From a virus (Duplodnaviria; Heunggongvirae; Uroviricota; Caudoviricetes), in the IMG/VR virus record IMGVR_UViG_2698536672_000007: 25,462 nt of DNA. One strand, written 5' to 3'. The position numbers and the translations under genes are program-made. This document shows positions 1,656-25,462 of this stretch, one piece after another; position 1 is the first letter of the stretch; every line of letters begins with the position of its first letter. Below the pieces are notes generated by a model. That model was not told the origin of the DNA. It did not search any database and saw only the letters and a program-made list of their open reading frames with translations.

Positions 1656-2556
1656 CCGTTCCTCCGTTGGTTACGCTCCACTGCGTACATGATGCCGCCT
1701 GTGTTTTGTTCAGGACCACATCCGCCAGCGGAGAAGCCAGTTCCACACGTTGAACACCCTCAACATGCAGAGCAGCAAAGATGGCGCTACGGCGAATATC
1801 CCGACCAAGCCTCGTCTGGCTGGCAATGTACTTCTGCAGACTGGCTTTTGCCGCTGCCATTACCGGCTCTGCTTCCGGTCCCGGATAGAGAAAAATGGTG
1901 GCTTCCACGCGATACGGGATGATTTCTGCGCTGCGAACCGTAAGACGGTCAGCCACCGGGCGGACGTTCTCACTGTTCAGAGCTTTTTCCACCACGTCCA
2001 GCAGGTCTTTTTCTGCAGTTCCATCGCCTTCGCGGCTAAGGACAGTCAGCACCACCTCTGCAGGTGCCGGGCTGGTTGCACTGGCATCCGCCACCCGACC
2101 GTCGGCGCTTCGGGCATGAAATTCATAAGCTGCAGTTGGCCCCGCAACAGAAAGCCCTTCAAAGGCTGCAGGCACACGCAGGCGCAACGCTTCATCGCTT
2201 TCCATCACAGCTGCAACGGGCGGCACAGCATCATTATCAGCAGGCGTCACCGTCAGGCGTGTCACGTTGTAGTTGGCAGCGAGCTGGTCAAGATCGCCGC
2301 CCATCGCGTAAGCCACCATCACCGCCTGCGCGGCTTCGTTAATGCGCTGGCGCAGAAGCAACTCACGGTAAGCGTTCTCCTGCAACAATTTAGTGGCGGG
2401 TTCAGATTCCAGTTCCAGCGTGCGGATCACTGCTTCCTGCTCATCTTTCGGATGAAGCGCCACAAATTCTGCCTTGCGTTCGGCAAGCAGCGTCTCAAAG
2501 TCCGGCACATCCACAATCTGCGGTGCAGGCAACTGCGAAAGGTCAATCACTGCCAT
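1648..2556 (-). CDS. J: Baseplate assembly protein (P2 gpJ-like)
   Basis: ORF-track start at 2595 is GTG; in-frame ATG at 2556 (MAVIDLSQLPAPQIVDVPDFETLLAERKAEF) is preceded by AGGAG with a 6-nt spacer. Baseplate J-like sequence and P2 order W-J-I. Confidence 0.8.
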   Translation of the reverse strand: MAVIDLSQLPAPQIVDVPDFETLLAERKAEFVALHPKDEQEAVIRTLELESEPATKLLQENAYRELLLRQRINEAAQAVMVAYAMGGDLDQLAANYNVTRLTVTPADNDAVPPVAAVMESDEALRLRVPAAFEGLSVAGPTAAYEFHARSADGRVADASATSPAPAEVVLTVLSREGDGTAEKDLLDVVEKALNSENVRPVADRLTVRSAEIIPYRVEATIFLYPGPEAEPVMAAAKASLQKYIASQTRLGRDIRRSAIFAALHVEGVQRVELASPLADVVLNKTQAASCTQWSVTNGGTDE

Positions 2557-2902
2557 TCTCTGCTCCTGTTGATACGGAAAGGGACACAGGCACACCGTTA
2601 TTCCGCCGCCCGGTCAGCTCCACCACCATTGAACCGTCAAAATTGCTGTTGATGGTGATGGAATCCAGCGTCAACCGTGGCTCCCAGCGACTCAGCGCCA
2701 CATACACTGCCGACATGACTTGCAGGCGTAATGCCGGATTTTGTGGCTGATCTATCAGTGCCGACAGCAGGGAACCATATTCCCGGCGGGCAATACGGCT
2801 ACCCTGCGGTGTCAGCAGAATGTCCCGCACCGACTGGCGCAGATGATCAATATCAGTAATGACTTTGCCGCTGGTATTGTTCATCCCGCTATAAAGCGTC
2901 AT
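2543..2902 (-). CDS. W: Baseplate protein (P2 gpW-like)
   Basis: 119-aa ORF with ATG at 2902, overlapping V stop and J start; position in P2 order V-W-J. Confidence 0.75.
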   Translation of the reverse strand: MTLYSGMNNTSGKVITDIDHLRQSVRDILLTPQGSRIARREYGSLLSALIDQPQNPALRLQVMSAVYVALSRWEPRLTLDSITINSNFDGSMVVELTGRRNNGVPVSLSVSTGAENGSD

Positions 2903-12341: not shown

Positions 12342-13680
12342 CATAAGCGCTAACTTAAGGGTTGTGGTATTACGCCTGATATGATTTAACGTGCCGATGA
12401 ATTACTCTCACGATAACTGGTCAGCAATTCTGGCCCATATTGGTAAGCCCGAAGAACTGGATACTTCGGCACGTAATGCCGGGGCTCTAACCCGCCGCCG
12501 CGAAATTCGTGATGCTGCAACTCTGCTACGTCTGGGGCTGGCTTACGGCCCCGGGGGGATGTCATTACGTGAAGTCACTGCATGGGCTCAGCTCCATGAC
12601 GTTGCAACATTATCTGACGTGGCTCTCCTGAAGCGGCTGCGGAATGCCGCCGACTGGTTTGGCATACTTGCCGCACAAACACTTGCTGTACGCGCCGCAG
12701 TTACGGGTTGTACAAGCGGAAAGAGATTGCGTCTTGTCGATGGAACAGCAATCAGTGCGCCCGGGGGCGGCAGCGCTGAATGGCGACTACATATGGGATA
12801 TGATCCTCATACCTGTCAGTTCACTGATTTTGAGCTAACCGACAGCAGAGACGCTGAACGGCTGGACCGATTTGCGCAAACGGCAGACGAGATACGCATT
12901 GCTGACCGGGGATTCGGTTCGCGTCCCGAATGTATCCGCTCACTTGCTTTTGGAGAAGCTGATTATATCGTCCGGGTTCACTGGCGAGGATTGCGCTGGT
13001 TAACTGCAGAAGGAATGCGCTTTGACATGATGGGTTTTCTGCGCGGGCTGGATTGCGGTAAGAACGGTGAAACCACTGTAATGATAGGCAATTCAGGTAA
13101 TAAAAAAGCCGGAGCTCCCTTTCCGGCACGTCTCATTGCCGTATCACTTCCTCCCGAAAAAGCATTAATCAGTAAAACCCGACTGCTCAGCGAGAATCGT
13201 CGAAAAGGACGAGTAGTTCAGGCGGAAACGCTGGAAGCAGCGGGCCATGTGCTATTGCTAACATCATTACCGGAAGATGAATATTCAGCAGAGCAAGTGG
13301 CTGATTGTTACCGTCTGCGATGGCAAATTGAACTGGCTTTTAAGCGGCTCAAAAGTTTGCTGCACCTGGATGCTTTGCGTGCAAAGGAACCTGAACTCGC
13401 GAAAGCGTGGATATTTGCTAATCTACTCGCCGCATTTTTAATTGACGACATAATCCAGCCATCGCTGGATTTCCCCCCCAGAAGTGCCGGATCCGAAAAG
13501 AAGAACTAACTCGTTGTGGAGAATAACAAAAATGGTCATCTGGAGCTTACAGGTGGCCATTCGTGGGACAGTATCCCTGACAGCCTACAAAACGCAATTG
13601 AAGAACGCGAGGCATCGTCTTAACGAGGCACCGAGGCGTCGCATTCTTCAGATGGTTCAACCCTTAAGTTAGCGCTTATG
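12342..13680 (+). mobile_element. IS186 (IS4 family) insertion sequence, apparently complete
   Basis: 23-bp terminal inverted repeats CATAAGCGCTAACTTAAGGGTTG (12342..12364) and its reverse complement (13658..13680); a single 370-aa transposase ORF; flanked by a 10-bp duplication of a G-run/C-run palindrome, the known IS186 target preference. Confidence 0.85.
12397..13509 (+). CDS. insL: IS186 transposase (DDE, IS4 family)
   Basis: Protein MNYSHDNWSAILAHIGKPEELDTSARNAG... matches the E. coli IS186 transposase as I recall it; ORF-track start at 12391 is GTG, ATG at 12397 gives 370 aa. Confidence 0.9.
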   Translation: MNYSHDNWSAILAHIGKPEELDTSARNAGALTRRREIRDAATLLRLGLAYGPGGMSLREVTAWAQLHDVATLSDVALLKRLRNAADWFGILAAQTLAVRAAVTGCTSGKRLRLVDGTAISAPGGGSAEWRLHMGYDPHTCQFTDFELTDSRDAERLDRFAQTADEIRIADRGFGSRPECIRSLAFGEADYIVRVHWRGLRWLTAEGMRFDMMGFLRGLDCGKNGETTVMIGNSGNKKAGAPFPARLIAVSLPPEKALISKTRLLSENRRKGRVVQAETLEAAGHVLLLTSLPEDEYSAEQVADCYRLRWQIELAFKRLKSLLHLDALRAKEPELAKAWIFANLLAAFLIDDIIQPSLDFPPRSAGSEKKN

Positions 13681-13698: not shown

Positions 13699-15891
13699 TT
13701 AAGTACGTAACATAATTTGCTGTTGAACTTGGATAGGCTGTAAGGTTTGATATTTCTGCCTAATTAGGTTATATAAATCCGGCATTTCTTCAGCAGATAA
13801 AGTCACAACAAGAACATATGGTAGTTCTTCTAACTCGTCAACATCAATAGGCATACCACAGTCTCTACCATAGTAGATAATATCAAAGCATGGGTTTGTC
13901 AGCTCATTCGGTTTAAATTTGTGTTCACTTCTTAACGTAGTCTCCCATTTATGTGCATCAACACGTTGCTCATTTTCATCTGCATAAACATTTTTTAGAT
14001 TAAAAAGAGGAAACGTTAACCCGGAACTATCTGAAACACCTTTTCTCATGGTTACTTCTAGACCGCTTCTTGTATAATTCAAAGGATGTTCCGCATCTAC
14101 AGGACTGGAAAAACAGAATGTCGCTCTTAAATTTACACATCCACGCATAGGTACATCTGGAAACGGAATAGGTGCTCGCATGTGTTGTGATGGTTTTAAA
14201 GTACCTTGATATATAACTTTAACTTCATCATCATCACAAAATATTACTTCACTAAGATCATGAGGAAATCGTCCCCAACCAACTTCAGCACGATTGATAT
14301 TATTGCTCTCCGCATGATGTATAAGCAGAGCTTTAGCCGTAAGTGGTGTAATGTTGTAATTTAGAGAAGCACTTAACGCGATTGCTTGCCTCAGGACTAA
14401 TGGAGCAGAAAAGCTAGTCCCCGCAGTGCGGGCAAGACCATTAACCATAGGGCTGTATACCTGGAATGGCTCATCAGAATGTCCTCCAAATGCAACTCCA
14501 TCAGGCTTCACAAAGCCAGGGCTTCGTCCAGGACCAATACAACTGTAAGAACATCTTTCCCAACTATCAGATAAAGAGGTTGCTGCACCTACTGACAGAC
14601 CATTAACTAAATCAGCAGGTGGTTGAATTCGATTTAACCTGGCAGGCAGCTGACCATCATTTCCAACCGCGACAGTACAAAGTGTTTCTCCTGATGCAAG
14701 TATCTCCTCAAGAGTTGAGGTCCACACATGCACGTCATCGTCATCAACAGGTAATCTAGGTCCTAAGCTCAGATTGATATAATCATATTTTTTTTGTTCT
14801 AATACACTTTTAATACGGATCAGAACGTCAAAAAGATCGACATCTGAGTTATTAACATTGGAATCCAGTACACGATAATGGTCAATATTACAATAAGGGA
14901 CACTTAATTTTTCCGTTTCAGAGCCAAGAACACCAAATAACACAGTAGAGGTGACATCCTGTCCATGAGAAAGAAGTTTTGCATTAGTACTAGCATTACC
15001 GTTGAAAGTGTACTCTGTTACCCAAGGATTGAAATCATCGATCCCCAATCCACCATCGAATATGGCAACCTTTATGTGTGGGTTTACCGCTCCTTCAGAT
15101 GGTAAACTAAGGTTAGATGTTTGAATCACAGAACGTGATATAACAGGCTCACTTAGCCTTAATTCAGGAAGTTCTCTCAAAGTCCTGAGAAATGAAAACT
15201 CTGCAACTTTTAAAGCTACATCTTTACTAGCCTTAATAGGCATAAAGGTTAGCCCCTTAACTTTTATACTTCTTGCCTTATCTATAACAGCACCATTTTG
15301 CGAAGCAAAAACTTCAAAACTATCGACAATAGAGGAACTTGTATCAGGAGTATGTAAGGCGACCTCAATACTCATAACTTCATTGCTATTAATCGTTTTT
15401 ACTTTATCTGAAACTTCCAGTATTGAAATATTTTCTAAGGTGACAAAATCATTTTGCTGCCCTTTCGTTAGGGTATCTTGATTTACAGAGTCTAAGAATG
15501 ATTGAAAACTTTCTTTTTTGCCAGAAACATAAATACACGCTGTAGTGTATTCCTCTTTTCGCCCTCTTTTTTTAATATCTTTTCTAGGTTTTACTTTTAC
15601 AGCCTTACTGCCTATGCTTTCTAGGGAAAATCGCTCAAAAAGACTTACTGGAAAATAACTTTTTGCTAAGAATGCCGGATGCAAAACAAATTTTGCTACA
15701 GCCTTACCTTCAGGCATTGCTAACAATGGAAGGGTATTAATTTCCTCAATCAACTCTTCCAGTTGAGCAGATATCACTGGTTTATTTTCTGAATAAGAGT
15801 AAGGTTTATTCTTTTCACCTCCACCTCTGTTAAGTTTAACAGGGTCAGTTAGTGTTTCACCATAGCCAAGAAGCATATTTTTATCATTCAT
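13699..15891 (-). CDS. Subtilisin-like serine protease (MEROPS S8-type catalytic core) with large N- and C-terminal extensions; candidate defence effector
   Basis: Catalytic motifs in D-H-S order: VAIFDGGLG (Asp), LSHGQDVTS (His), YINLSLGP (oxyanion Asn), GTSFSAPLV (Ser). No signal peptide. ORF-track first codon is TTG at 15906; I prefer ATG at 15891 (MNDKNMLLGYGE...), preceded by GAGGA with a 9-nt spacer and overlapping the upstream ATPase stop by 8 nt. Low GC. Confidence 0.75.
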   Translation of the reverse strand: MNDKNMLLGYGETLTDPVKLNRGGGEKNKPYSYSENKPVISAQLEELIEEINTLPLLAMPEGKAVAKFVLHPAFLAKSYFPVSLFERFSLESIGSKAVKVKPRKDIKKRGRKEEYTTACIYVSGKKESFQSFLDSVNQDTLTKGQQNDFVTLENISILEVSDKVKTINSNEVMSIEVALHTPDTSSSIVDSFEVFASQNGAVIDKARSIKVKGLTFMPIKASKDVALKVAEFSFLRTLRELPELRLSEPVISRSVIQTSNLSLPSEGAVNPHIKVAIFDGGLGIDDFNPWVTEYTFNGNASTNAKLLSHGQDVTSTVLFGVLGSETEKLSVPYCNIDHYRVLDSNVNNSDVDLFDVLIRIKSVLEQKKYDYINLSLGPRLPVDDDDVHVWTSTLEEILASGETLCTVAVGNDGQLPARLNRIQPPADLVNGLSVGAATSLSDSWERCSYSCIGPGRSPGFVKPDGVAFGGHSDEPFQVYSPMVNGLARTAGTSFSAPLVLRQAIALSASLNYNITPLTAKALLIHHAESNNINRAEVGWGRFPHDLSEVIFCDDDEVKVIYQGTLKPSQHMRAPIPFPDVPMRGCVNLRATFCFSSPVDAEHPLNYTRSGLEVTMRKGVSDSSGLTFPLFNLKNVYADENEQRVDAHKWETTLRSEHKFKPNELTNPCFDIIYYGRDCGMPIDVDELEELPYVLVVTLSAEEMPDLYNLIRQKYQTLQPIQVQQQIMLRT

Positions 15892-16966
15892 TGTCTTCAT
15901 CCTCAACCGTCAAAACCTTACGTACTTGTGACCTTGAAATCCCCAAATCTAAAGCGATTTTTCTTTGTGATACATTGTTGTTTGACATGTTTTTTATAAC
16001 ATCATCAAGTGACACGCCATCTAACAACTCATCAATTAAAGCTGAACTTAAAGGAATATCTTCTATAATGGCATTTCTTTTAGCTTGATTTATAGCTCTC
16101 TCAAGAACTGCATATGAAACTTTTTCGAGTTTTGTAGCAATATAGTACGATAAGCTATCTCCAATATTTTTAGAACAGAGATATCTTCTCATTAGGTCTT
16201 GTGTTGGATATTCAAAATCAATAACTCGATCGAATCTTCTCCATGCAGCAGGATCAAGCAGCTCCGCATGGTTAGTTGCTGCTATAAGAACAGACGTATT
16301 TGGCCATTCATCAATTGCTTGCAATAATACTGTAACTAATCTTTTTAGTTCTCCAACATCTGTTGCATCATCCCTTTTTTTAGCAATCGCATCAAATTCG
16401 TCAAGAAGCAGTACACAAGGGAATGACGAAGCATAATTGAGGACTGCCTTAATATTATTACCCGTTTTCCCCAAGTAGCTACTCATTACACTTGCGAGAT
16501 CTAATGTTAACAATGGCATATCGAGTTTAAAAGCGAGCCACTTTGCAGCCAAAGTCTTCCCCACACCGGGTGGTCCTCCCATAAGAAGAGATTTGGAGGG
16601 ATGCAACCCTTCTTTATAAAGGCGTTCTTTCATTTCCCACTCAGCCACAAATCGATTCAGTTGAACATCAGTTTTTGTTGGCCAAACAGGTTCAACATCA
16701 ATGACCACAGGATATGTTTCAACTAGCAGCTTTTGTCTTGTATCCGCATCAACAGGTGTTATTTTAGGAACAACTGGATTAGCCCTTTCGACTGCAATTG
16801 CGCCACCCGTATTAATAAGTAAATCTTCTAATTTACCCGCTAATTCAGGAGATTCTTTTTTTAGTTTTTTTGCCATAATCCGCAACCGCATGAGGAGACT
16901 TTCCCTCTTCCCCGTAAGAGCATCACTGACAACATCAATGAGCATTTCGTTTGTAACGTTTATCAT
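15884..16966 (-). CDS. AAA+ ATPase (classic AAA clade) with C-terminal helix-turn-helix; candidate defence sensor/regulator
   Basis: Walker A GGPPGVGKT, Walker B VLLLDEFD, sensor-1 LIAATN, second region of homology AAWRRFDRVI; C-terminal NVSQRKIALDLGISRSQVRKVL resembles a Fis/LuxR-type HTH. ATG at 16966; low GC. Confidence 0.75.
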   Translation of the reverse strand: MINVTNEMLIDVVSDALTGKRESLLMRLRIMAKKLKKESPELAGKLEDLLINTGGAIAVERANPVVPKITPVDADTRQKLLVETYPVVIDVEPVWPTKTDVQLNRFVAEWEMKERLYKEGLHPSKSLLMGGPPGVGKTLAAKWLAFKLDMPLLTLDLASVMSSYLGKTGNNIKAVLNYASSFPCVLLLDEFDAIAKKRDDATDVGELKRLVTVLLQAIDEWPNTSVLIAATNHAELLDPAAWRRFDRVIDFEYPTQDLMRRYLCSKNIGDSLSYYIATKLEKVSYAVLERAINQAKRNAIIEDIPLSSALIDELLDGVSLDDVIKNMSNNNVSQRKIALDLGISRSQVRKVLTVEDEDNE

Positions 16967-17380: not shown

Positions 17381-17614
17381 TTAATGCAGCCAGCTGTCGT
17401 CTTCCCACACCTTCTGCATAATTTTCATCACTTGTTTTCTTTCTTCGTCCAGTTGCAGTCCGGTCAGTTCCACACCGTTAGAGCTACCTTTGCGGATACG
17501 AATTACCGTTTTGGGATACAGGGGGCGCAGATTGCGGTAAAGCTCGGATTCAAGGGCGTCCAGTGTAGACTGGCTAATCTTTTGCTCTTTATCGATCATT
17601 ATTTCAATGCGCAT
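17381..17614 (-). CDS. DinI-like protein (SOS-regulated RecA modulator family)
   Basis: 77 aa from ATG 17614 (MRIEIMIDKEQKISQSTLDALESELYRNL...KIMQKVWEDDSWLH); recalls E. coli DinI in length, the MRIE start and the acidic W-containing C-terminus. SD GAGGTGA with a 5-nt spacer. ORF-track start 17686 is upstream in the same frame. Confidence 0.6.
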   Translation of the reverse strand: MRIEIMIDKEQKISQSTLDALESELYRNLRPLYPKTVIRIRKGSSNGVELTGLQLDEERKQVMKIMQKVWEDDSWLH

Positions 17615-17624
17615 AAAAGTCACC

Positions 17625-17813
17625 TCAGCTGATGACATCCATTGAGCGGTTGTATTCGTGGGTTCTGATTTTTGCCATGAGTTCATCTGTCAGTTCAGAA
17701 ACCCACTGCAGGGCCAGCCCCTTCTCTTCATCACTACACTCACTAGCCGCTACAAGCTTAAGAAAAAAATCAATGCGCTGGAGCTTCAAAGACTCCAAAA
17801 AATAGTCCTGCAT
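17625..17813 (-). CDS. Small protein in a LexA-controlled operon; possible Tum-like antirepressor N-terminal module
   Basis: 62-aa ORF with ATG at 17813 preceded by AGGAGG; a LexA box lies in its promoter region; position between A and cos corresponds to the 186 tum locus. Confidence 0.45.
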   Translation of the reverse strand: MQDYFLESLKLQRIDFFLKLVAASECSDEEKGLALQWVSELTDELMAKIRTHEYNRSMDVIS

Positions 17814-17965: not shown

Positions 17966-20380
17966 TTAATACAGATTCCGCCACTTATCATCTTCCCGCA
18001 AACGCTGGTTCCGATAGAAGATACGCAGGCCTGCTCCTGACGGAATACTGCCACCGCGAAGGAGTAAATCGACCTCTTTCTCGCTGCCATCAAATCCTCT
18101 GGACTTCAGTTCATAGACGAGCTGCTGTCGCTGATCATCTGTAATTCGCTGTTTGTAGTCTTTACGCCGTTTCGGCTTAACCAGGCGTAACCTTGCTGCC
18201 AGTTCCCGGCGCTCTTTTTTGCTCATACTGTGCAGGTAATCGTGCAACTCCTTGTCATCCATGCGGGTAATGTCCGTTCTGGTGTCCCCATCAGCTGATT
18301 TATCTTTCTCCTGTTGGTTCAAATTTTCCGCAAGGGGACAGTTATTGCCACGAGTCCAAGGGGCGCAAGCGCCCTGGTCGGCTGCCGCCTCCTGAACGTC
18401 AACGGCTTTACGAACCATTTTCCACTTCACTGCATGAGTGCAGATCTTGCCCTCTGCAATGGGTGACCAGATGCCATAAATACGAATGCCGTGATCGCCA
18501 TAGGCGGTCGGCTCTTCGTTGATTTCATAAGCGGTTCTGATGAGGTGATATTTACGGGGAACCAGTACGCCGCCCTGCTTCATGATGTAGGTGGCAAAAC
18601 AACCAGCATCAGCAGCAGCCAGAATGGCATCAAGACGCGGGTTATCCAGTACCGGCGCACCTGCTTTTTTGTCACCCTGTTGCCTTGCCGCCTGACCAGC
18701 CAGCAAGCGAAGTTCACGGTAAGCCTGACGCCCCGGAATACCAAAGAAGCGGAATTGCTGAACACGATGCAGAGACGCCCAGGCATTCACGTATTCAGCG
18801 TTATCACGCAGAGATTTACCCGTTTCCTTGCTGATCTCGCCAGCCAGACCACGACCGTCAATGTTCTTACTGATATATTTCGCGATGTAGCTTGTCGGCG
18901 TTCCTTTGCGCGGGTTAATCAACTCAGACTTAAAGCGCGGCCCAGTGTTATTGCCCAGCTCCTCGCGGTCTTCACGGATGGCAAACTTACGCAGTAATGC
19001 AGTGATGGCACGGCGGTCTTTTTTGCGCATGAAACACAACAGGTGCCAGTGAACTGTGCCATCATGATGCGGCTCAGCCACCCGCACGCCATACCAGCGC
19101 AACCCGGCTTTGTGCATCGCCTTACGAAATGCAGCAAACATGCCGACCAGATAATCGCTGCTTTGTCTTACCGTCGCGTTTGTCCAGGTCGGGTTTGGTC
19201 TGCCGTTATTTAGCGTGGAATGGAAACGCGACGGACAGGTGATAGTGTAGAAAACGGCGCAGTCACCGCGCATTTCCGCGATAAGCTCCAGACCTTTAAC
19301 ACAGGCCATCATCTCATTGCGGCGATGCGCAGGGTTGCTGCTGCTGGCGTTTACCACATCCTCCATGTCCAGCGTGTCGCCGTCTTCGTTCACCAGTTCA
19401 TGAGAACGGAAAAACTCCAGCGACTTACGGCGCTGCTCACGTTTATGCATCACGGCTTCATAGCTGACATAAGGAGATGCTTTTTTGCTGACCAGGCAAA
19501 CAGCGCGCAACTGCTCTTCCCGCCATTCGCAACGCATCTTCCATAATTTCCGGTACCACCAGTCGGCGCACAACATACGCGCCAGCGAACCCGGAATGAG
19601 TTCATAGGGCACGGGTTTACGGCGGTTTCTTTTCCGACGGAGTTGCTCAAACGCAGGTGGGATGACATCCAGACGCAGGGTTTCCGCTGCCACCTTTTCC
19701 CATGTCTTGCGGATTTCTTCTGGCTTAACGTCATCGGTGGCATACAAATCACCACAAGCTGCATCAAGGCACATACTCATATGCGCAGCTACCAGGGTGG
19801 ACAGGCGTTTCACCTGATCCTGACTCATTTCAGGCAGGATCAGCAGGCCGTCCAGCCCTTCATGGCTTGCCATAAAGCGAAAAGATGCAGATAGCTGACT
19901 GTCGCGTACATGCTCCAGTCGTTCCAGACATGGCTTAATCGTCTCACGTAAATAGCGGGAATAAGCCTTTGGCCTGCCCAGGCTGCTGAAGTATTCAATA
20001 CGTTGCATCAGCGGCTTGCTGATATGGGAAGGCTGGGCGTTGACGTCCGCCAGAATGACCATGTCTGAATTAAAACGCTGCTGCTCATGCGCCAGCTTTG
20101 CCCGGCTAATGAGCTTATCCTGCTCCATTTCGCGCTGGACAGGATCACGTGATTCATTAAAGAAATAACGCTCCCAGACCTGATCACTCAGTGCCTCGCG
20201 GCGCAACTGTTCCTGCTCGTTATCGGCAGCGTACAGAGTGATCAGGTTTGAAAGCGTAGAAACCGGCGCAACTTCCGCCGGGTCCAGATAAGGGTTAATG
20301 GCCTTTTTCGGGCTGTTCCATGAGAATGCTGCGGCAGCCTCGTTAAAGCCGCAGCAGTTGTTCATATCGGCATGACTCAT
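17966..20380 (-). CDS. A: Replication initiation endonuclease (P2 gpA-like rolling-circle initiator)
   Basis: 804-aa ORF with ATG at 20380; contains [14 protein letters not shown], matching the conserved active-site tyrosine region of P2 gpA as I recall it. Confidence 0.85.
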
Positions 20381-21234
20381 GCACGTACTCCGTACACGGC
20401 AGAACTATCCACGCCACGCGAATAATCAAATCCCATCCAGCAGCGCGGCCCGGAAACAGCAATGATTTCTGTTGCTGATTTACCCTCGCCAGCTGCCACA
20501 CCGATGCTGCGTTTTACCTTGATATAGTGGTGAGTAAAATTGCGATACAGCGAACGGATCAGGGATGTGTCACTGTTAGAAACAATGACTGGATGTCCTT
20601 CTGATGACCGATGTTCAAGAACGGATGCCAGGTGATACTGGTCATCTTCAGTGAAACCATCAGTGTGATAGCCGGAAAACGTACCGTCATACGGCGGATC
20701 GCAATACACCACATCTCCCGCCTTCAACATCGCCAGCGTTTCATCAAAGCTGGCGCAGATAAACGTTGCTCGCTGGGCTTTTTCTGCAAATGTGCGAAGT
20801 TCTTTTTCAGGGAAATACGGATTTTTATAATTACCGTAGGGGATGTTGAAATGCCCGCTCTTGTTATAGCGACATAAACCACGGTAACCGTGACGATTAA
20901 GATACAGGAAATATACCGCTTTCATGAAATCAGTAATTTCAGTTGAGCAGTTAAACTCCTGCCTTATGTTGTAATAAGCCACCTCCCTGTTTGCGATCTC
21001 AAATAAAACTCTGGCGCGAGATATAAACGATTCACAATCAGCGGCAACCTTTTTATAGAGGTTGATTAAATCAGGATTAATATCCGCAACCAGATAGCTG
21101 GGATAATCCGTTTCCATCATCACAGCACAGGAACCCGCGAAAGGTTCAACCAGTCGCGGGCCAGCAGGAAGGTATTTTTTCAGTTCTGGCATAATGGCGG
21201 TTTTATTTCCCGCCCATTTCAGGATGGTGCTCAT
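20377..21234 (-). CDS. DNA adenine methyltransferase (Dam family)
   Basis: ORF-track start 21294 is TTG; ATG at 21234 gives [11 protein letters not shown]... with AdoMet motif EPFAGSCAV and catalytic DPPY; its ATG overlaps the upstream gene stop. Confidence 0.8.
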
Positions 21235-21458
21235 ACAGCACCTCCGTTGTAATGTTTGCCTTTCAGTTCTGCGATTTCCTGACAGGTAATGCAAAGCTGC
21301 ACTCCCGGAATGGCGCGGCGTCGTGCTGGCGGAATTGGCGCTTCACATTCAATGCAAAGTACGCGTGACACGCCCGGTGATTTGGCACGGGCTGCACGGA
21401 TATGGCGCTGGCGTTCTTCTTCAACGCGCTGCTGTACGAGATCCATTGCATCAGCCAT
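21231..21458 (-). CDS. TraR/DksA-type C4 zinc-finger protein
   Basis: 75-aa ORF with ATG at 21458; two CxxC pairs (CIEC ... CITC). Confidence 0.65.
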   Translation of the reverse strand: MADAMDLVQQRVEEERQRHIRAARAKSPGVSRVLCIECEAPIPPARRRAIPGVQLCITCQEIAELKGKHYNGGAV

Positions 21459-22521: not shown

Positions 22522-23031
22522 TCACAGCAAACCGAATGAAGCACCGAGGCCAGTCACGGTATCAACTGCACTCGCCATCGCAGGATTAGCCTGTAAACGG
22601 GCCTGCAATGAAACAGCAGCCAGCGCCATCAGTCGTGTTACAGAGTTAATGCTGCTGATAGCATCACGACGACCGGCACTAGTTTTTACATCACCAGATA
22701 CCGCACCTGCTGCAACACGCCCGATCTCTGCAGTTGCGCTCATGACGTAATGCGGCAGTTTCTCTTTTGCTACCTCATTAATCGGTACACATGGCAGACA
22801 ATGAATCTGTGCCAGAAAACCATCTACCAACGTTGAATCTTCAGTCAGATCGGTAAGCAGCCAGATTTCTGGTGCGGTTAATAAATGAGGTTGAGCTGGG
22901 TTCAGCTTGTTCCGCAGAATCTGCACATTCATGCCCGCACGTTCTGCCAGTTGCACCAGATTGTGGCGCAGTGCGAATGCACGACAGGCTTCATCAAAAT
23001 GTGGATGTTTGGAAACTTGGTAATCAAACAT
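22522..23031 (-). CDS. cII: CII-like lysogeny establishment activator (phage 186 type)
   Basis: ATG at 23031 gives 169 aa starting [37 protein letters not shown]..., matching 186 CII as I recall it. ORF-track start 23040 is TTG. Confidence 0.8.
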
Positions 23032-23095
23032 GGTTTTCAACTCCGAACTTATCGCAAAATCGAACTCAGCGTCTTATTGCGAAAATAGACGTCTA

Positions 23096-23299
23096 TTAAG
23101 CAGACAAAGCATCAACAGTCAGAGCAGCCAGGTTAATCATTACCTTTTCACGTTTTTTGTCTTTACGAAGACGATGACGAGGTAGTCGGCCATCAGCCAA
23201 CATGTCGTTAATCGTATCAATAGAAAGGCCAGTCAGTTCGCTATAACGTTCGATTGTGACATGTGGTGTATTCAGAGTAATTGAAATGTTAGGTGTCAT
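23096..23299 (-). CDS. apl: Apl-like excisionase/lytic-switch repressor (HTH)
   Basis: 67-aa ORF with ATG at 23299; HTH-like [19 protein letters not shown]; first gene of the early operon, divergent from cI as in 186. Confidence 0.6.
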
Positions 23300-23444: not shown

Positions 23445-24014
23445 GTGGATTTCAATAGCGGCGGTAAGAAAGCCATAGAACGTTTAGTTGAAGCATATGG
23501 GTTCGGTACCCGTCAGGCTCTATGTGATCATTTAGGTGTTTCTAAGAGCACCATGGCAACGCGCTATATGCGTGATATTTTTCCAGCAGATTGGGTAATC
23601 CAGTGCGCCCTTGAAACGGGCACCTCGCTTAATTGGCTAACAACAGGGCATGGTTCAAAGCAAGCATCAGCAAATACAAATACTATAGAAGTAGAAAAAT
23701 ATTTATTGTCTGATGGAGCATTGCAGAAAGACGGTTTTTATATTTTTGATAAGGGATTTCTACCCTCTACGTTTAAAAAACCTTTTGTCATCACAGATAA
23801 CAATTCTGAATTTATTTGTGATAAAGAATTTGATGATATACGTGATGGTAAATGGGTAATAAGTATTGATGGCGAAATAACGATCCGTGACATTACTCGT
23901 TTACCCGGTGGAAGAATCTTCGTCGAGGGTGGAAACAGAGCCTTCGAATGCAAGATAGAAGACATTGAAATAATTGGTAAAATTATAAGTTTAACAGTCA
24001 AGTATGTTAAATAG
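23445..24014 (+). CDS. cI: CI-like immunity repressor (HTH N-terminal domain, AT-rich C-terminal domain)
   Basis: ORF-track start 23358 is GTG and would place pR inside the gene; GTG at 23445 preceded by GGAGG gives 189 aa, close to the ~192-aa 186 CI. HTH-like QALCDHLGVSKSTMATRYMRD. Start uncertain. Confidence 0.65.
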   Translation: MDFNSGGKKAIERLVEAYGFGTRQALCDHLGVSKSTMATRYMRDIFPADWVIQCALETGTSLNWLTTGHGSKQASANTNTIEVEKYLLSDGALQKDGFYIFDKGFLPSTFKKPFVITDNNSEFICDKEFDDIRDGKWVISIDGEITIRDITRLPGGRIFVEGGNRAFECKIEDIEIIGKIISLTVKYVK

Positions 24015-24029
24015 TACCGGGAGGAAACT

Positions 24030-24221
24030 ATGCTTGGTAAGGTATTTTTTGTGGTTTTGTCATGTTCTTTGTTATTAAACCCACTAACTACCTATGCTAG
24101 AAATTATCCCTGCTCAGGGAAAAAGGGAGGTGTTTCTCACTGTACCTCAGATGGCAAATTCGTTTGCAATGATGGAACTATTAGTAAATCCAAAAAAATC
24201 TGTACTAAAAACTCACGATAA
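24030..24221 (+). CDS. Small secreted cysteine-rich protein (possible lysogenic-conversion moron)
   Basis: 63 aa; ATG at 24030 preceded by GGGAGG with a 6-nt spacer; signal peptide [23 protein letters not shown] followed by a ~40-aa Lys-rich mature region with four Cys; AT-rich. Confidence 0.5.
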
Positions 24222-24409
24222 CTTTTGCTTTTATATCTGCGTCTAAAATAAAAATGAGCCGCAGGTTAACCGCAAAAGTTACATGCTCACATAGCAAAAA
24301 GAATAGCCAACTTAATTATGGCTTCAGTGAGATGTATGGTCGTAGGATTTCATACATTGACACTGGTTATACATACAGTGAAAATGCTCTCTACTGGAGG
24401 GCATTTTTT

Positions 24410-25462
24410 ATGGCAGTACGAAAACTCACCACTGGGAAATGGCTTTGCGAATGTTACCCCGCCGGACGAAGTGGGCGTCGTGTGCGTAAACAATTCGTCA
24501 CCAAAGGCGAAGCACTGGCTTTTGAGCGCCACACGATGGAAGAAACCGAAGCAAAGCCCTGGCTGGGTGAATCAGTGGATCGTCGAACACTGAAAGACGT
24601 GGTTGAGCTATGGTTCAAACTACATGGTAAATCTCTGACAGCTGGGCAGCATGTCTATGACAAATTGCTGTTGATGGTTGACGCTCTGGGCAATCCTCTT
24701 GCAACCGATCTCACCTCTAAAATGTTTGCCCACTATCGAGATAAACGCCTGACAGGCGAGATCTACTTCAGCGAGAAATGGAAGAAAGGAGCAAGCCCGG
24801 TCACCATTAACCTGGAGCAAAGCTATCTAAGTAGTGTTTTTAGCGAACTATCCCGTCTGGGCGAATGGTCGTATCCGAACCCACTGGAGAACATGCGAAA
24901 ATTCACCATCGCAGAAAAAGAGATGGCATGGCTTACCCATGAGCAGATTGTTGAATTGCTGGCTGATTGCAAACGTCAGGACCCAATTCTGGCACTGGTA
25001 GTTAAGATATGCTTAAGCACAGGCGCACGCTGGCGTGAAGCCGTAAATCTTACCCGCTCACAGGTGACCAAATACCGAATTACCTTTGTCAGAACGAAGG
25101 GGAAGAAAAACAGAAGCATCCCTATCAGTAAAGAGCTTTACGAAGAGATCATGGCGCTTGATGGGTTCAATTTCTTCACAGACTGCTATTTTCAATTTTT
25201 ATCCGTGATGGAAAAAACGTCTATCGTGCTCCCTCGCGGTCAACTCACACACGTTCTGCGCCATACGTTTGCGGCGCACTTCATGATGTCGGGTGGAAAC
25301 ATTCTGGCCTTACAAAAAATTCTCGGACACCACGATATAAAAATGACTATGCGTTACGCACATCTGGCACCGGATCATCTGGAAACGGCGCTCCGTTTCA
25401 ATCCTCTGGCAACGCTGCCAAGTGGCGACAAAGTGGCGGCAGCGGTTGGCATTACCCCGTAA
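24410..25462 (+). CDS. int: Tyrosine integrase (P2/186 family)
   Basis: ORF-track start 24254 is likely over-extended; ATG at 24410 (MAVRKLTTGKWLCECYPAG...) gives 350 aa. Catalytic region HVLRHTFAAH ... HHDIKMTMRYAHL with the tyrosine nucleophile. Stop coincides with the window end. Confidence 0.85.
   Translation: MAVRKLTTGKWLCECYPAGRSGRRVRKQFVTKGEALAFERHTMEETEAKPWLGESVDRRTLKDVVELWFKLHGKSLTAGQHVYDKLLLMVDALGNPLATDLTSKMFAHYRDKRLTGEIYFSEKWKKGASPVTINLEQSYLSSVFSELSRLGEWSYPNPLENMRKFTIAEKEMAWLTHEQIVELLADCKRQDPILALVVKICLSTGARWREAVNLTRSQVTKYRITFVRTKGKKNRSIPISKELYEEIMALDGFNFFTDCYFQFLSVMEKTSIVLPRGQLTHVLRHTFAAHFMMSGGNILALQKILGHHDIKMTMRYAHLAPDHLETALRFNPLATLPSGDKVAAAVGITP

Follow-up and report, generated by a model that had tools for sequence, protein, structure and literature searches.

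What does a small gene lodged between a prophage's immunity repressor and its integrase do for its carrier? We addressed this question for the open reading frame (ORF) at positions 24030 to 24221 (+ strand) of IMG/VR record IMGVR_UViG_2698536672_000007, a 25,462-nt stretch of tailed-phage DNA that we refer to, at its full length, as the window. The window represents a 186-like phage belonging to the P2 family (Peduoviridae) that resides as a prophage in Escherichia coli, in one genome beside the host gene rcdA. An original prediction, made from the sequence alone, described the ORF product as a small secreted cysteine-rich protein and possible lysogenic-conversion factor, and did not recognize the sequence. 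Our analyses revealed that it is a catalogued one: the ORF is almost certainly a YdcA-family gene, and its paralogue on the E. coli chromosome is the core gene ydcA. The sequence is already in RefSeq, and the family is known to both Pfam and NCBIfam. As to function, we propose, tentatively, that the product is a periplasmic binding module that may interfere with incoming DNA.

Against NCBIfam model NF007463 (curated cut-off, 93 bits) the protein scored 115.8 bits (E = 5.3e-34, residues 5 to 63 of 63), and against phrog_6000 it scored 118 bits (E = 1.9e-34); it is identical to RefSeq entry WP_000900883.1, for which the current PGAP name is "YdcA family protein." Its homologues, including a 98%-identical cluster representative (P0001), carry Pfam PF27300 ("YdcA") in precomputed tables; the family labels are NF007463 / PRK10040.1-2 in NCBIfam and PF27300 in Pfam. 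Our local Pfam-A scan of the ORF returned only a sub-threshold, irrelevant GULLO2-like match (E = 0.075), which is not counter-evidence to family membership, because the Pfam copy used is older than PF27300. Of the homology and structure searches that the original prediction had suggested, those with hidden Markov models (HMMs) identified the YdcA family and, as described below, a structural relative was found in Dis2 of the Legionella Dot/Icm system. For the UniRef label "Conjugal transfer protein," attached to the identical protein (A0A2V2I184_ECOLX, A0A0J2AJ46_ECOLX), we found no supporting evidence; the nearest thing to it is a TraD-like gene adjoining a homologue on a 3.9-kb Acinetobacter plasmid.

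The gene opens with an ATG at 24030 and closes with a TAA stop at 24219 to 24221, giving 63 codons. A Shine-Dalgarno sequence, GGAGGA, lies at 24020 to 24025 (+), and the end of its GGAGG core is 5 nt from the ATG. Residues 1 to 23 (24030 to 24098, +) form a predicted Sec signal peptide, laid out as MLGK, a 12-residue hydrophobic core with a grand average of hydropathy (GRAVY) of 2.86, and NPLTTYA; there is a single positive charge within the first 23 residues, and the T-Y-A that precedes an arginine agrees with the −3/−1 rule for cleavage. The mature part would comprise 40 residues, including 7 lysines, 2 arginines and 4 cysteines (positions 28, 38, 46, and 58), with a calculated isoelectric point of 9.7 and mass of 4.29 kDa, while a further cysteine, Cys12, falls within the signal peptide. 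The earlier description therefore held in its particulars: the strong Shine-Dalgarno sequence, the signal peptide (as predicted by sequence rules), the lysine-rich mature region of ∼40 residues with four cysteines, and the location between cI, whose stop codon ends at 24014, and int, which starts at 24410.

We also considered whether Cys12 might be a lipidation site of the type found in Cor and Llp, outer-membrane lipoproteins with which phages block receptors. The V-L-S-C at residues 9 to 12 is lipobox-like, but only 11 residues precede the cysteine, and homologues have F, I or V at the −1 position (LLFC, LLIC, ILVC, LFVC) or lack the cysteine altogether; the lipoprotein reading was rejected. 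The cleavage motif that is kept among homologues is [ST]-[FY]-A before [KR]-N-Y-P-C. From the sequence rules, this family-wide leader pattern, and the description of E. coli YdcA as a 57-aa predicted periplasmic protein (PMC11340327), we infer that the window protein is exported; Sec export, cleavage after residue 23, and formation of two disulfides are all reasonable deductions. The signal peptide, together with the five disulfides visible in the cryo-EM map of Dis2 (PMC8486379), likewise suggests a periplasmic location with oxidized cysteines.

The YdcA domain core runs from Cys28 to Cys58 (31 residues; 24111 to 24203, +) and is marked by invariant columns, 87% identity, and an AlphaFold model; its net charge is +4. 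Residues 28 to 58 fit the four-cysteine motif of the family, P-C-S-G-x-K-G-G-[VI]-x-H-C-x(3-5)-F-[VI]-C-N-D-G-x-x-S-x-S-K-K-x-C, when this is searched as a regular expression. When 25 homologues (Enterobacterales, Moraxella, and Betaproteobacteria) were aligned with it, eleven columns proved invariant (K32, G33, G34, C38, F44, C46, D48, G49, S52, S54, and K55), and the window protein has all of these as well as all near-invariant ones. Residues 25 to 58 are on average 87% identical to the homologues, compared with 27% for the signal-peptide part, which nevertheless stays hydrophobic. Such a variable leader next to a constrained domain is, as judged from the alignment, the signature of a cleaved leader before a conserved domain. 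Moreover, a prophage allele that is 93.8% identical at the DNA level (locus L005) shows 11 synonymous codon differences against a single nonsynonymous one, the conservative R24K, and this ratio firmly supports purifying selection on the gene. As 48 ORFs of at least 25 aa overlap the surrounding 4-kb stretch, a length of 63 codons is in itself no evidence for a gene; it is the HMM matches, the contrast between leader and domain, and the 11:1 codon changes that identify the ORF as a real one.

The gene begins 15 nt after the stop codon of the 186-type CI repressor (23445 to 24014, +; Pfam Phage_CI_repr, 2.5e-31, and Phage_CI_C, 3.4e-29; PGAP "phage repressor protein CI"). Beyond it lies a P2-type tyrosine integrase (24410 to 25462, +; Int_N, 3.2e-32, and Phage_integrase, 7.4e-22; start as annotated by PGAP), the end gene of the lysogenic operon and of the prophage, with rcdA downstream. 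No terminator-like site was found on the + strand between cI and int. In HP2 and K139 an annotated pL promoter drives the cI-to-int operon, and in Pasteurellaceae relatives the YdcA-family gene and cI overlap by 1 nt. By analogy with the pL operons of HP2 and K139, and given the short gap and the terminator-free interval, cotranscription with cI and expression in the lysogen are plausible.

Comparison with 186-like relatives shows that the cI–int interval is a variable cargo slot that can hold anti-phage systems. The slot is empty in Escherichia phage ESSI2_ev129; it holds PD-Lambda-1 in vB_EcoM-813R9 (PADLOC, 3.1e-120; L018, 3576 to 5252) and a 349-aa protein without an assigned identity in Klebsiella phage 4LV2017 (L017, 3567 to 4616). 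The window carries YdcA alone, and other E. coli prophages carry YdcA together with a KAP NTPase (PADLOC PDC-S20, 1.3e-171; L007, 1697 to 3028, and L009, 5198 to 6529). In one KAP-NTPase–bearing immunity type, the YdcA allele is only 69% identical and has an unrelated signal peptide. A cI–int hotspot was reported for K139-like Vibrio phages (PMC9122126), and a minor "integrase-primase" hotspot for P2-like phages (PMC13586616). Since the slot holds defense systems in relatives and the periplasmic exclusion protein Glo in K139, the earlier idea of an envelope protein acting in lysogenic conversion or superinfection gains in plausibility.

Lack of conservation across related prophages, which the original prediction had regarded as damaging to its proposal, is not what we observed, as the gene is kept in both related and distant P2-like prophages. 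tblastn searches of phage genomes found the mature domain at ∼75% identity in Moraxella catarrhalis, Acinetobacter, and Haemophilus HP2 and S2 phages and at 55% in a Pseudomonas phage; these searches gave no match in enterobacterial phages. In HP2, an unannotated 60-aa YdcA-family ORF lies between cI and orf1 (L002, 2420 to 2602; NC_003315.1, complement(2486..2668)), with 1 nt of its ATG shared with the cI stop codon. An identical arrangement is seen in genomes of Haemophilus parainfluenzae and Pasteurellaceae (L083, L085, L086). We then surveyed one genome per species, which gave 80 loci, most of them in Alpha-, Beta-, or Gammaproteobacteria and a few elsewhere. Neighbors were defined by calling genes crudely, clustering the products, and scanning one representative per cluster with Pfam. 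A 186-type CI gene lies upstream on the same strand in 10 of the 80 loci (Escherichia, Buttiauxella, Yersinia, Atlantibacter, Pasteurellaceae, and H. parainfluenzae), directly so in 7 of them, with gaps of −1 to 47 nt. In eight betaproteobacterial P2-like loci (Iodobacter, Comamonas, Aquabacterium, Janthinobacterium, and a Hydrogenophilales metagenome-assembled genome), the same-strand upstream gene encodes a nonhomologous helix-turn-helix/S24 repressor, and P2 tail genes lie on the other side in seven of these eight (GpD-type, with GpU and the tape measure in five). Of 85 same-strand neighbors, the family seen most often was the phage CI repressor (7 cases), followed by cytochrome b561 (6, from the chromosomal locus of E. 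coli) and integrase (5). These data firmly support that P2-like prophages keep the YdcA gene behind the immunity repressor, even across differing repressor families.

The family extends well beyond these phages. An exhaustive profile search found 446 clusters at 50% identity with E ≤ 0.001, of which 256 reached E ≤ 1e-10, and the best 150 of the 446 form the basis of our view of domain architectures and neighborhoods. In IMG/VR, 493 viral contigs encode a YdcA relative, and the family also occurs on plasmids, including 3.9- to 4.1-kb MOBQ plasmids among those of Acinetobacter, and Rhizobium megaplasmids. The prophage copy is present in 648 complete E. coli genomes, with a match covering at least 80% of the gene in 628 (∼12% of complete genomes), and chromosomal ydcA in 5416 of 5426. 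We found no universal operon partner: a Moraxellaceae membrane protein and an HP2 OB-fold protein that adjoin the gene are both missing from the E. coli prophage. The former is a single-pass protein encoded 8 to 61 nt after the YdcA gene on a chromosome, a 3.9-kb plasmid, and phage Mcat17 (L013, 5186 to 5884; L003, 966 to 1697; L004, 3126 to 3578). The two Moraxella versions (from M. bovoculi and Mcat17) are 55% identical over the first 53 residues and differ in their periplasmic parts, and the Acinetobacter plasmid version shows only weak mid-region likeness to them; YdcA and the membrane protein may form a two-gene module in Moraxellaceae.

Clues to the role of the YdcA domain came from its fusion partners, charge, and structure. 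Among 197 family members, the YdcA domain starts at a median residue of 28, right after the signal peptide, and a few proteins hold two or three copies. In the 54 long members, the sole enzyme domains fused C-terminal to YdcA are Endonuclease_NS (four proteins), SNase (one), and PLD (one), that is, secreted nuclease families of three unrelated folds (P0109, P0179, P0213, P0159, P0176, and P0195). SNase genes also adjoin the YdcA gene in two further species (L072, 3963 to 4856; L092, 5135 to 5710). Net charge over the 30- to 31-residue core is above zero for 196 of 206 copies (mean +3.4), with K32 and K55 invariant. The HP2 orf1 product, encoded next after the YdcA-like ORF, is the secreted OB-fold protein mentioned above, of the "tRNA_anti-like" type. 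We also observed a second, C-terminal, basic cysteine-rich motif, C-x-C-R-S-G-x-x-C-T-G-P-R-G-G-x-Y-C...S-Y-x-R-R, in betaproteobacterial and Rhizobium YdcA proteins (L054, 5001 to 5348; L066; L084; L095; L103, 3923 to 4273). Its Comamonas version (L054) matches Pfam PBCV_basic_adap just above threshold, and its Rhizobium version has no Pfam match.

The AlphaFold model, built from 26 sequences, consists of a short helix and a small β-hairpin, with a mean predicted local distance difference test (pLDDT) score of 77 and block means of 82 to 90 over residues 31 to 60. Foldseek returned as its top match Dis2 of the Dot/Icm outer-membrane cap (Lpg0823; PDB 7MUC/7MUD, chain AN; proteins P0238 and P0239; probability 0.97, 38% identity over 39 columns), which is the only relative of the model in the PDB. 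A profile hmmsearch of the PDB also recovered Dis2 (E = 7.2e-5), with the common motif CS-K-GG-[IV]-x-x-C...VCN-[DN]-G-x-x-S, and PF27300 is carried by a Dis2-like protein. Dis2 seems to consist of two YdcA-like domains in tandem, related by distant homology. Because published work calls Dis2 Legionella-specific and without structural relatives, this link seems to be unreported in the searchable literature.

Taken together, these leads suggest the following model. The 63-aa precursor would be translated, exported by Sec, and cut by signal peptidase I after residue 23 to yield a 4.3-kDa, strongly basic periplasmic mini-protein with its four cysteines in two disulfides. Encoded first among the cargo of the lysogenic operon that runs from cI to int, YdcA would be produced continuously in lysogens. 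The 31-residue Cys-knot would then act as a small binding module in the periplasm beneath the outer membrane, where it would bind a polyanion, with nucleic acid as the leading candidate, or an envelope machine that conducts nucleic acid. Such binding would interfere with the entry of foreign DNA into the lysogen and so bring about superinfection exclusion of heteroimmune phages, possibly also interfering with transforming DNA in competent hosts. Nucleic acid is favored as the ligand by the nuclease fusions, the charge, and the HP2 neighbor, and a role against incoming DNA by a genome position common to defense cargo and K139 Glo; Glo, though unrelated, would be the precedent for exclusion from a matching position. 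Both the ligand and the exclusion phenotype are hypothetical, and we hold this exclusion model only tentatively.

Several observations weigh against it. We found no experiment that ties any YdcA-family protein to DNA binding or phage exclusion, and in the literature searched no paper gives YdcA a function. The phenotype that has been described, 3-hydroxypropionate sensitivity upon deletion of ydcA in E. coli W (PMC7642389), concerns stress rather than phage. Searched against the PADLOC-DB 2.0 defense HMMs, the window protein matched no family at E values up to 0.01. The nuclease fusions are rare, mostly metagenomic singletons that represent about three events, and could equally reflect a shared localization module. 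Ties to secretion machinery point elsewhere: one YdcA subfamily gene follows tssJ–tssE of a type VI secretion cluster on a Citrobacter sp. TSA-1 plasmid (L102, 3926 to 4327), family member P0120 is fused to a VasL domain, and Dis2 is a structural subunit that contacts the lipoproteins DotK, DotC, and DotD without contact to the substrate channel (PMC12716638). Finally, because chromosomal ydcA is near-universal in E. coli, a prophage-specific exclusion role is not obvious, and a simple "new host trait" is weakened as well. The type VI–linked Citrobacter gene precedes a gene for a T5orf172/MUG113 protein.

Much of this evidence would be accommodated if the protein were an envelope adaptor or host-fitness factor, which we consider a possible, and likewise tentative, explanation. 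Here the domain would be a protein- or peptidoglycan-binding "staple" under the outer membrane that docks, as Dis2 does, on lipoproteins, OmpA-like domains, or peptidoglycan, and the prophage copy would raise the dose of an envelope-stabilizing stress-tolerance protein. This would be classical lysogenic conversion at the level of host physiology, with incoming DNA not directly affected. The two YdcA-like lobes of Dis2, which bind their Dot partners near the outer membrane, and the type VI–associated members fit such a role, and a localization module would likewise explain fusion to several periplasmic or secreted nucleases. So does what is known of the chromosomal gene: besides the 3-hydroxypropionate phenotype, earlier reports cited in PMC7642389 describe up-regulation at pH 5.0 under YdcI control, the literature maps a σS-type constitutive promoter within the rydC–ydcA spacer, and the chromosomal copy is so common that a prophage may mainly alter dose and regulation. 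That same commonness, however, also counts against an added copy. The conserved YdcA lysines are missing in Dis2, whose role may have diverged, and Dis2 can be lost with hardly any consequence for structure or function (PMC8486379, PMC12716638). Nor does an adaptor explain why P2-like phages with two repressor families link the gene to the repressor, or why its slot is shared with defense genes. In addition, a published table of genes described as more highly expressed in a pnp mutant includes ydcA, with a 10.7-fold change.

That the gene is a neutral passenger, a host-derived sequence hitch-hiking in the cI–int slot to the benefit of neither phage nor lysogen, is improbable. The slot is indeed highly variable, being empty in ESSI2_ev129 and filled with other cargo in 813R9 and 4LV2017, and the host already has a paralogue. 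But a passenger would not be expected to show strong purifying selection between prophage alleles, a domain conserved across immunity types whose signal peptides differ, a matching repressor-linked position in Enterobacterales, Pasteurellales, and Betaproteobacteria, or translational coupling to cI in Pasteurellaceae. Even less probable is a secreted antimicrobial peptide or bacteriocin-like toxin, released by lysogens against competitors that lack the element. Its size, cationic charge, and four cysteines recall defensin-like peptides; the gene travels on phages, on 3.9- to 4.1-kb mobilizable plasmids, and on large plasmids; and comparative genomics placed a YdcA-family gene among the candidates unique to Pseudomonas protegens strains active against Burkholderia glumae (PMC13541209). 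Against this, its leader is a Sec signal peptide and not of the double-glycine kind, the window shows neither a dedicated exporter gene nor an immunity gene beside it, E. coli ydcA is a single-copy core chromosomal gene without a partner, the domain also serves as an N-terminal module of larger enzymes, in tandem repeats, and in the structural subunit Dis2, and 87% conservation across hosts is unlike that of fast-evolving bacteriocins. A chance frame in an A+T-rich intergenic spacer, conceivable where short ORFs are so plentiful, is refuted for practical purposes by an HMM E value of ∼1e-34, family-wide conservation, the 11:1 codon ratio, and the strong Shine-Dalgarno sequence.

Returning to the exclusion model, one can ask whether it extends to the family at large, with YdcA mini-proteins forming a widespread, hitherto unrecognized class of periplasmic DNA-entry blockers; this we consider doubtful. 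The basic, ∼30-residue disulfide knot would bind nucleic acid or its envelope conduit; gammaproteobacterial and betaproteobacterial P2-like phages would have coupled it to their repressors, and small plasmids would carry it as well. These elements would exclude superinfecting phages or block transformation-mediated curing, and the same module would have been recruited as a binding or anchoring domain of secreted nucleases and as Dis2.

The function of ydcA is worth establishing, given that it is a core E. coli gene with a prophage copy in about one-eighth of genomes and relatives on hundreds of viral contigs. Besides the Dis2 relationship, two of the leads described here were not found in the searchable literature: the placement of the gene directly behind the repressor in P2-like prophages of distant hosts (unannotated in HP2), and the occurrence of YdcA at the N terminus of secreted nucleases from three unrelated families. 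Should the peptide prove to keep DNA out of the cell, it would be an exclusion factor that is very small and easy to synthesize, and a function could be assigned to ydcA.

Upstream of cI, a divergent lytic operon begins with an Apl/Cox-like excisionase-repressor (23096 to 23299, −; phrog_575 "Cox-like excisionase and repressor," 1e-29) and a CII-like activator lies at 22522 to 23040 (−; Pfam Phage_CP76, 3.4e-42). The 188-nt spacer between the YdcA-family gene and int (24222 to 24409, +) contains a promoter-like TTGACA-17-GAAAAT at 24357 to 24385; it is in this spacer that the alleles L007 and L009 hold their KAP NTPase gene. As the promoter scan found 4 promoter-like sites compared with 4.3 expected by shuffling, we draw no promoter claim; the strongest match of the region, TTAACA-17-TATAAT (11/12; 23982 to 24010, −), is antisense to the 3′ end of cI and may be due to chance. 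The 69 bp at 24352 to 24420, which reach from the spacer into int, share 95.7% identity with the sequence upstream of int in Klebsiella phage 4LV2017, whose module is otherwise unrelated. They may represent a conserved region that controls int, or else a joint at which the cargo slot recombines. Megablast of the cI–int stretch against the sequenced phages of INPHARED gave only this 69-bp match, in Klebsiella phages, and the exact immunity module of the window is missing from that collection. Rfam and tRNA scans of the window gave no matches. PADLOC identified an anti-phage defense pair on the − strand, IetA (AAA ATPase; 15884 to 16966, 6.7e-84) and IetS (subtilase; 13699 to 15906, 1.4e-48), in the interval from the portal gene to gpA that is the classical cargo hotspot of P2. 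What looks like an insertion sequence separates the portal gene from this system (ORF 12391 to 13509, +; DDE_Tnp_1 transposase domain, 1.6e-26), and the early region also contains a DinI-like gene (17381 to 17686, −) and a Dam-type N6-adenine methyltransferase gene (20377 to 21294, −).

How does the window protein compare with known systems? Its closest counterpart is E. coli YdcA (b1419; WP_000731833.1 type), encoded at the locus cybB–ydcA–hokB. Both belong to the same family (NCBIfam PRK10040 group, PF27300), with a signal peptide followed by one four-cysteine domain, and a hand count of the two sequences put the mature domains at ∼79% identity. Their signal peptides, however, are unrelated, and the C-terminal TKNSR tail is peculiar to the window protein, which exceeds the cut-off of NF007463, a separate equivalog model, but scored only 68.5 bits against NF007462 (cut-off 118), a 57-position model that we take to represent the chromosomal type. 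The two genes also differ in setting and control: ydcA is a chromosomal core gene with a σS-type promoter region and reported acid-responsive control, whereas the window gene belongs to a lysogenic operon, where it follows cI as cargo of the prophage.

Dis2 resembles the window protein in being secreted, disulfide-locked, and periplasmic (the last as predicted for the window protein). It lies near the outer membrane, where DotK, one of its contacts along with DotC and DotD, is OmpA-like (PMC8486379, PMC12716638). Dis2, though, has two tandem lobes with ten cysteines and five disulfides (PMC8486379), as opposed to one lobe with four mature cysteines, and lacks the lysine-rich SKSKK segment. It is also part of a secretion machine, whereas we found no secretion-system genes among the ORFs examined in the P2/186-like prophage of the window. 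In the secreted and periplasmic nucleases, the YdcA domain sits after the signal peptide and before the Endonuclease_NS, SNase, or PLD-type domain, the usual place of substrate-binding or anchoring modules; unlike these fused members, the window domain stands alone, and no nuclease gene adjoins it. A class II microcin or other small bacteriocin was rejected as a match, since the leader is of the Sec type, not double-glycine, and the only neighbors are cI and int.

The remaining comparisons concern the slot itself. PD-Lambda-1 and the PDC-S20 KAP NTPase occupy the variable slot of closely related 186-like prophages just as the window gene does. They are large, cytoplasmic, ATPase- or nuclease-type systems recognized by PADLOC, whereas the YdcA protein is a 40-residue peptide, predicted to be exported and PADLOC-negative, and it can co-occur with such cargo rather than only replace it. 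The nearest parallel in position is Glo of K139, a P2-related phage of Vibrio cholerae. Homology between the two proteins was rejected (hhalign probability, 1.2%), and we regard Glo as a positional, possibly functional, analogue only. Its sequence of 137 aa has two cysteines in the mature part, after a signal peptide whose end we read from the sequence as ...AFA. Yet, like the window protein, Glo has an N-terminal signal peptide and is encoded in the pL lysogenic operon, in the order cI–orf2–glo–int as compared with cI–YdcA–int. Glo is annotated in GenBank as "periplasmic protein; involved in phage exclusion," and that exclusion role was documented by Nesper et al. 1999, as cited in PMC4870250.

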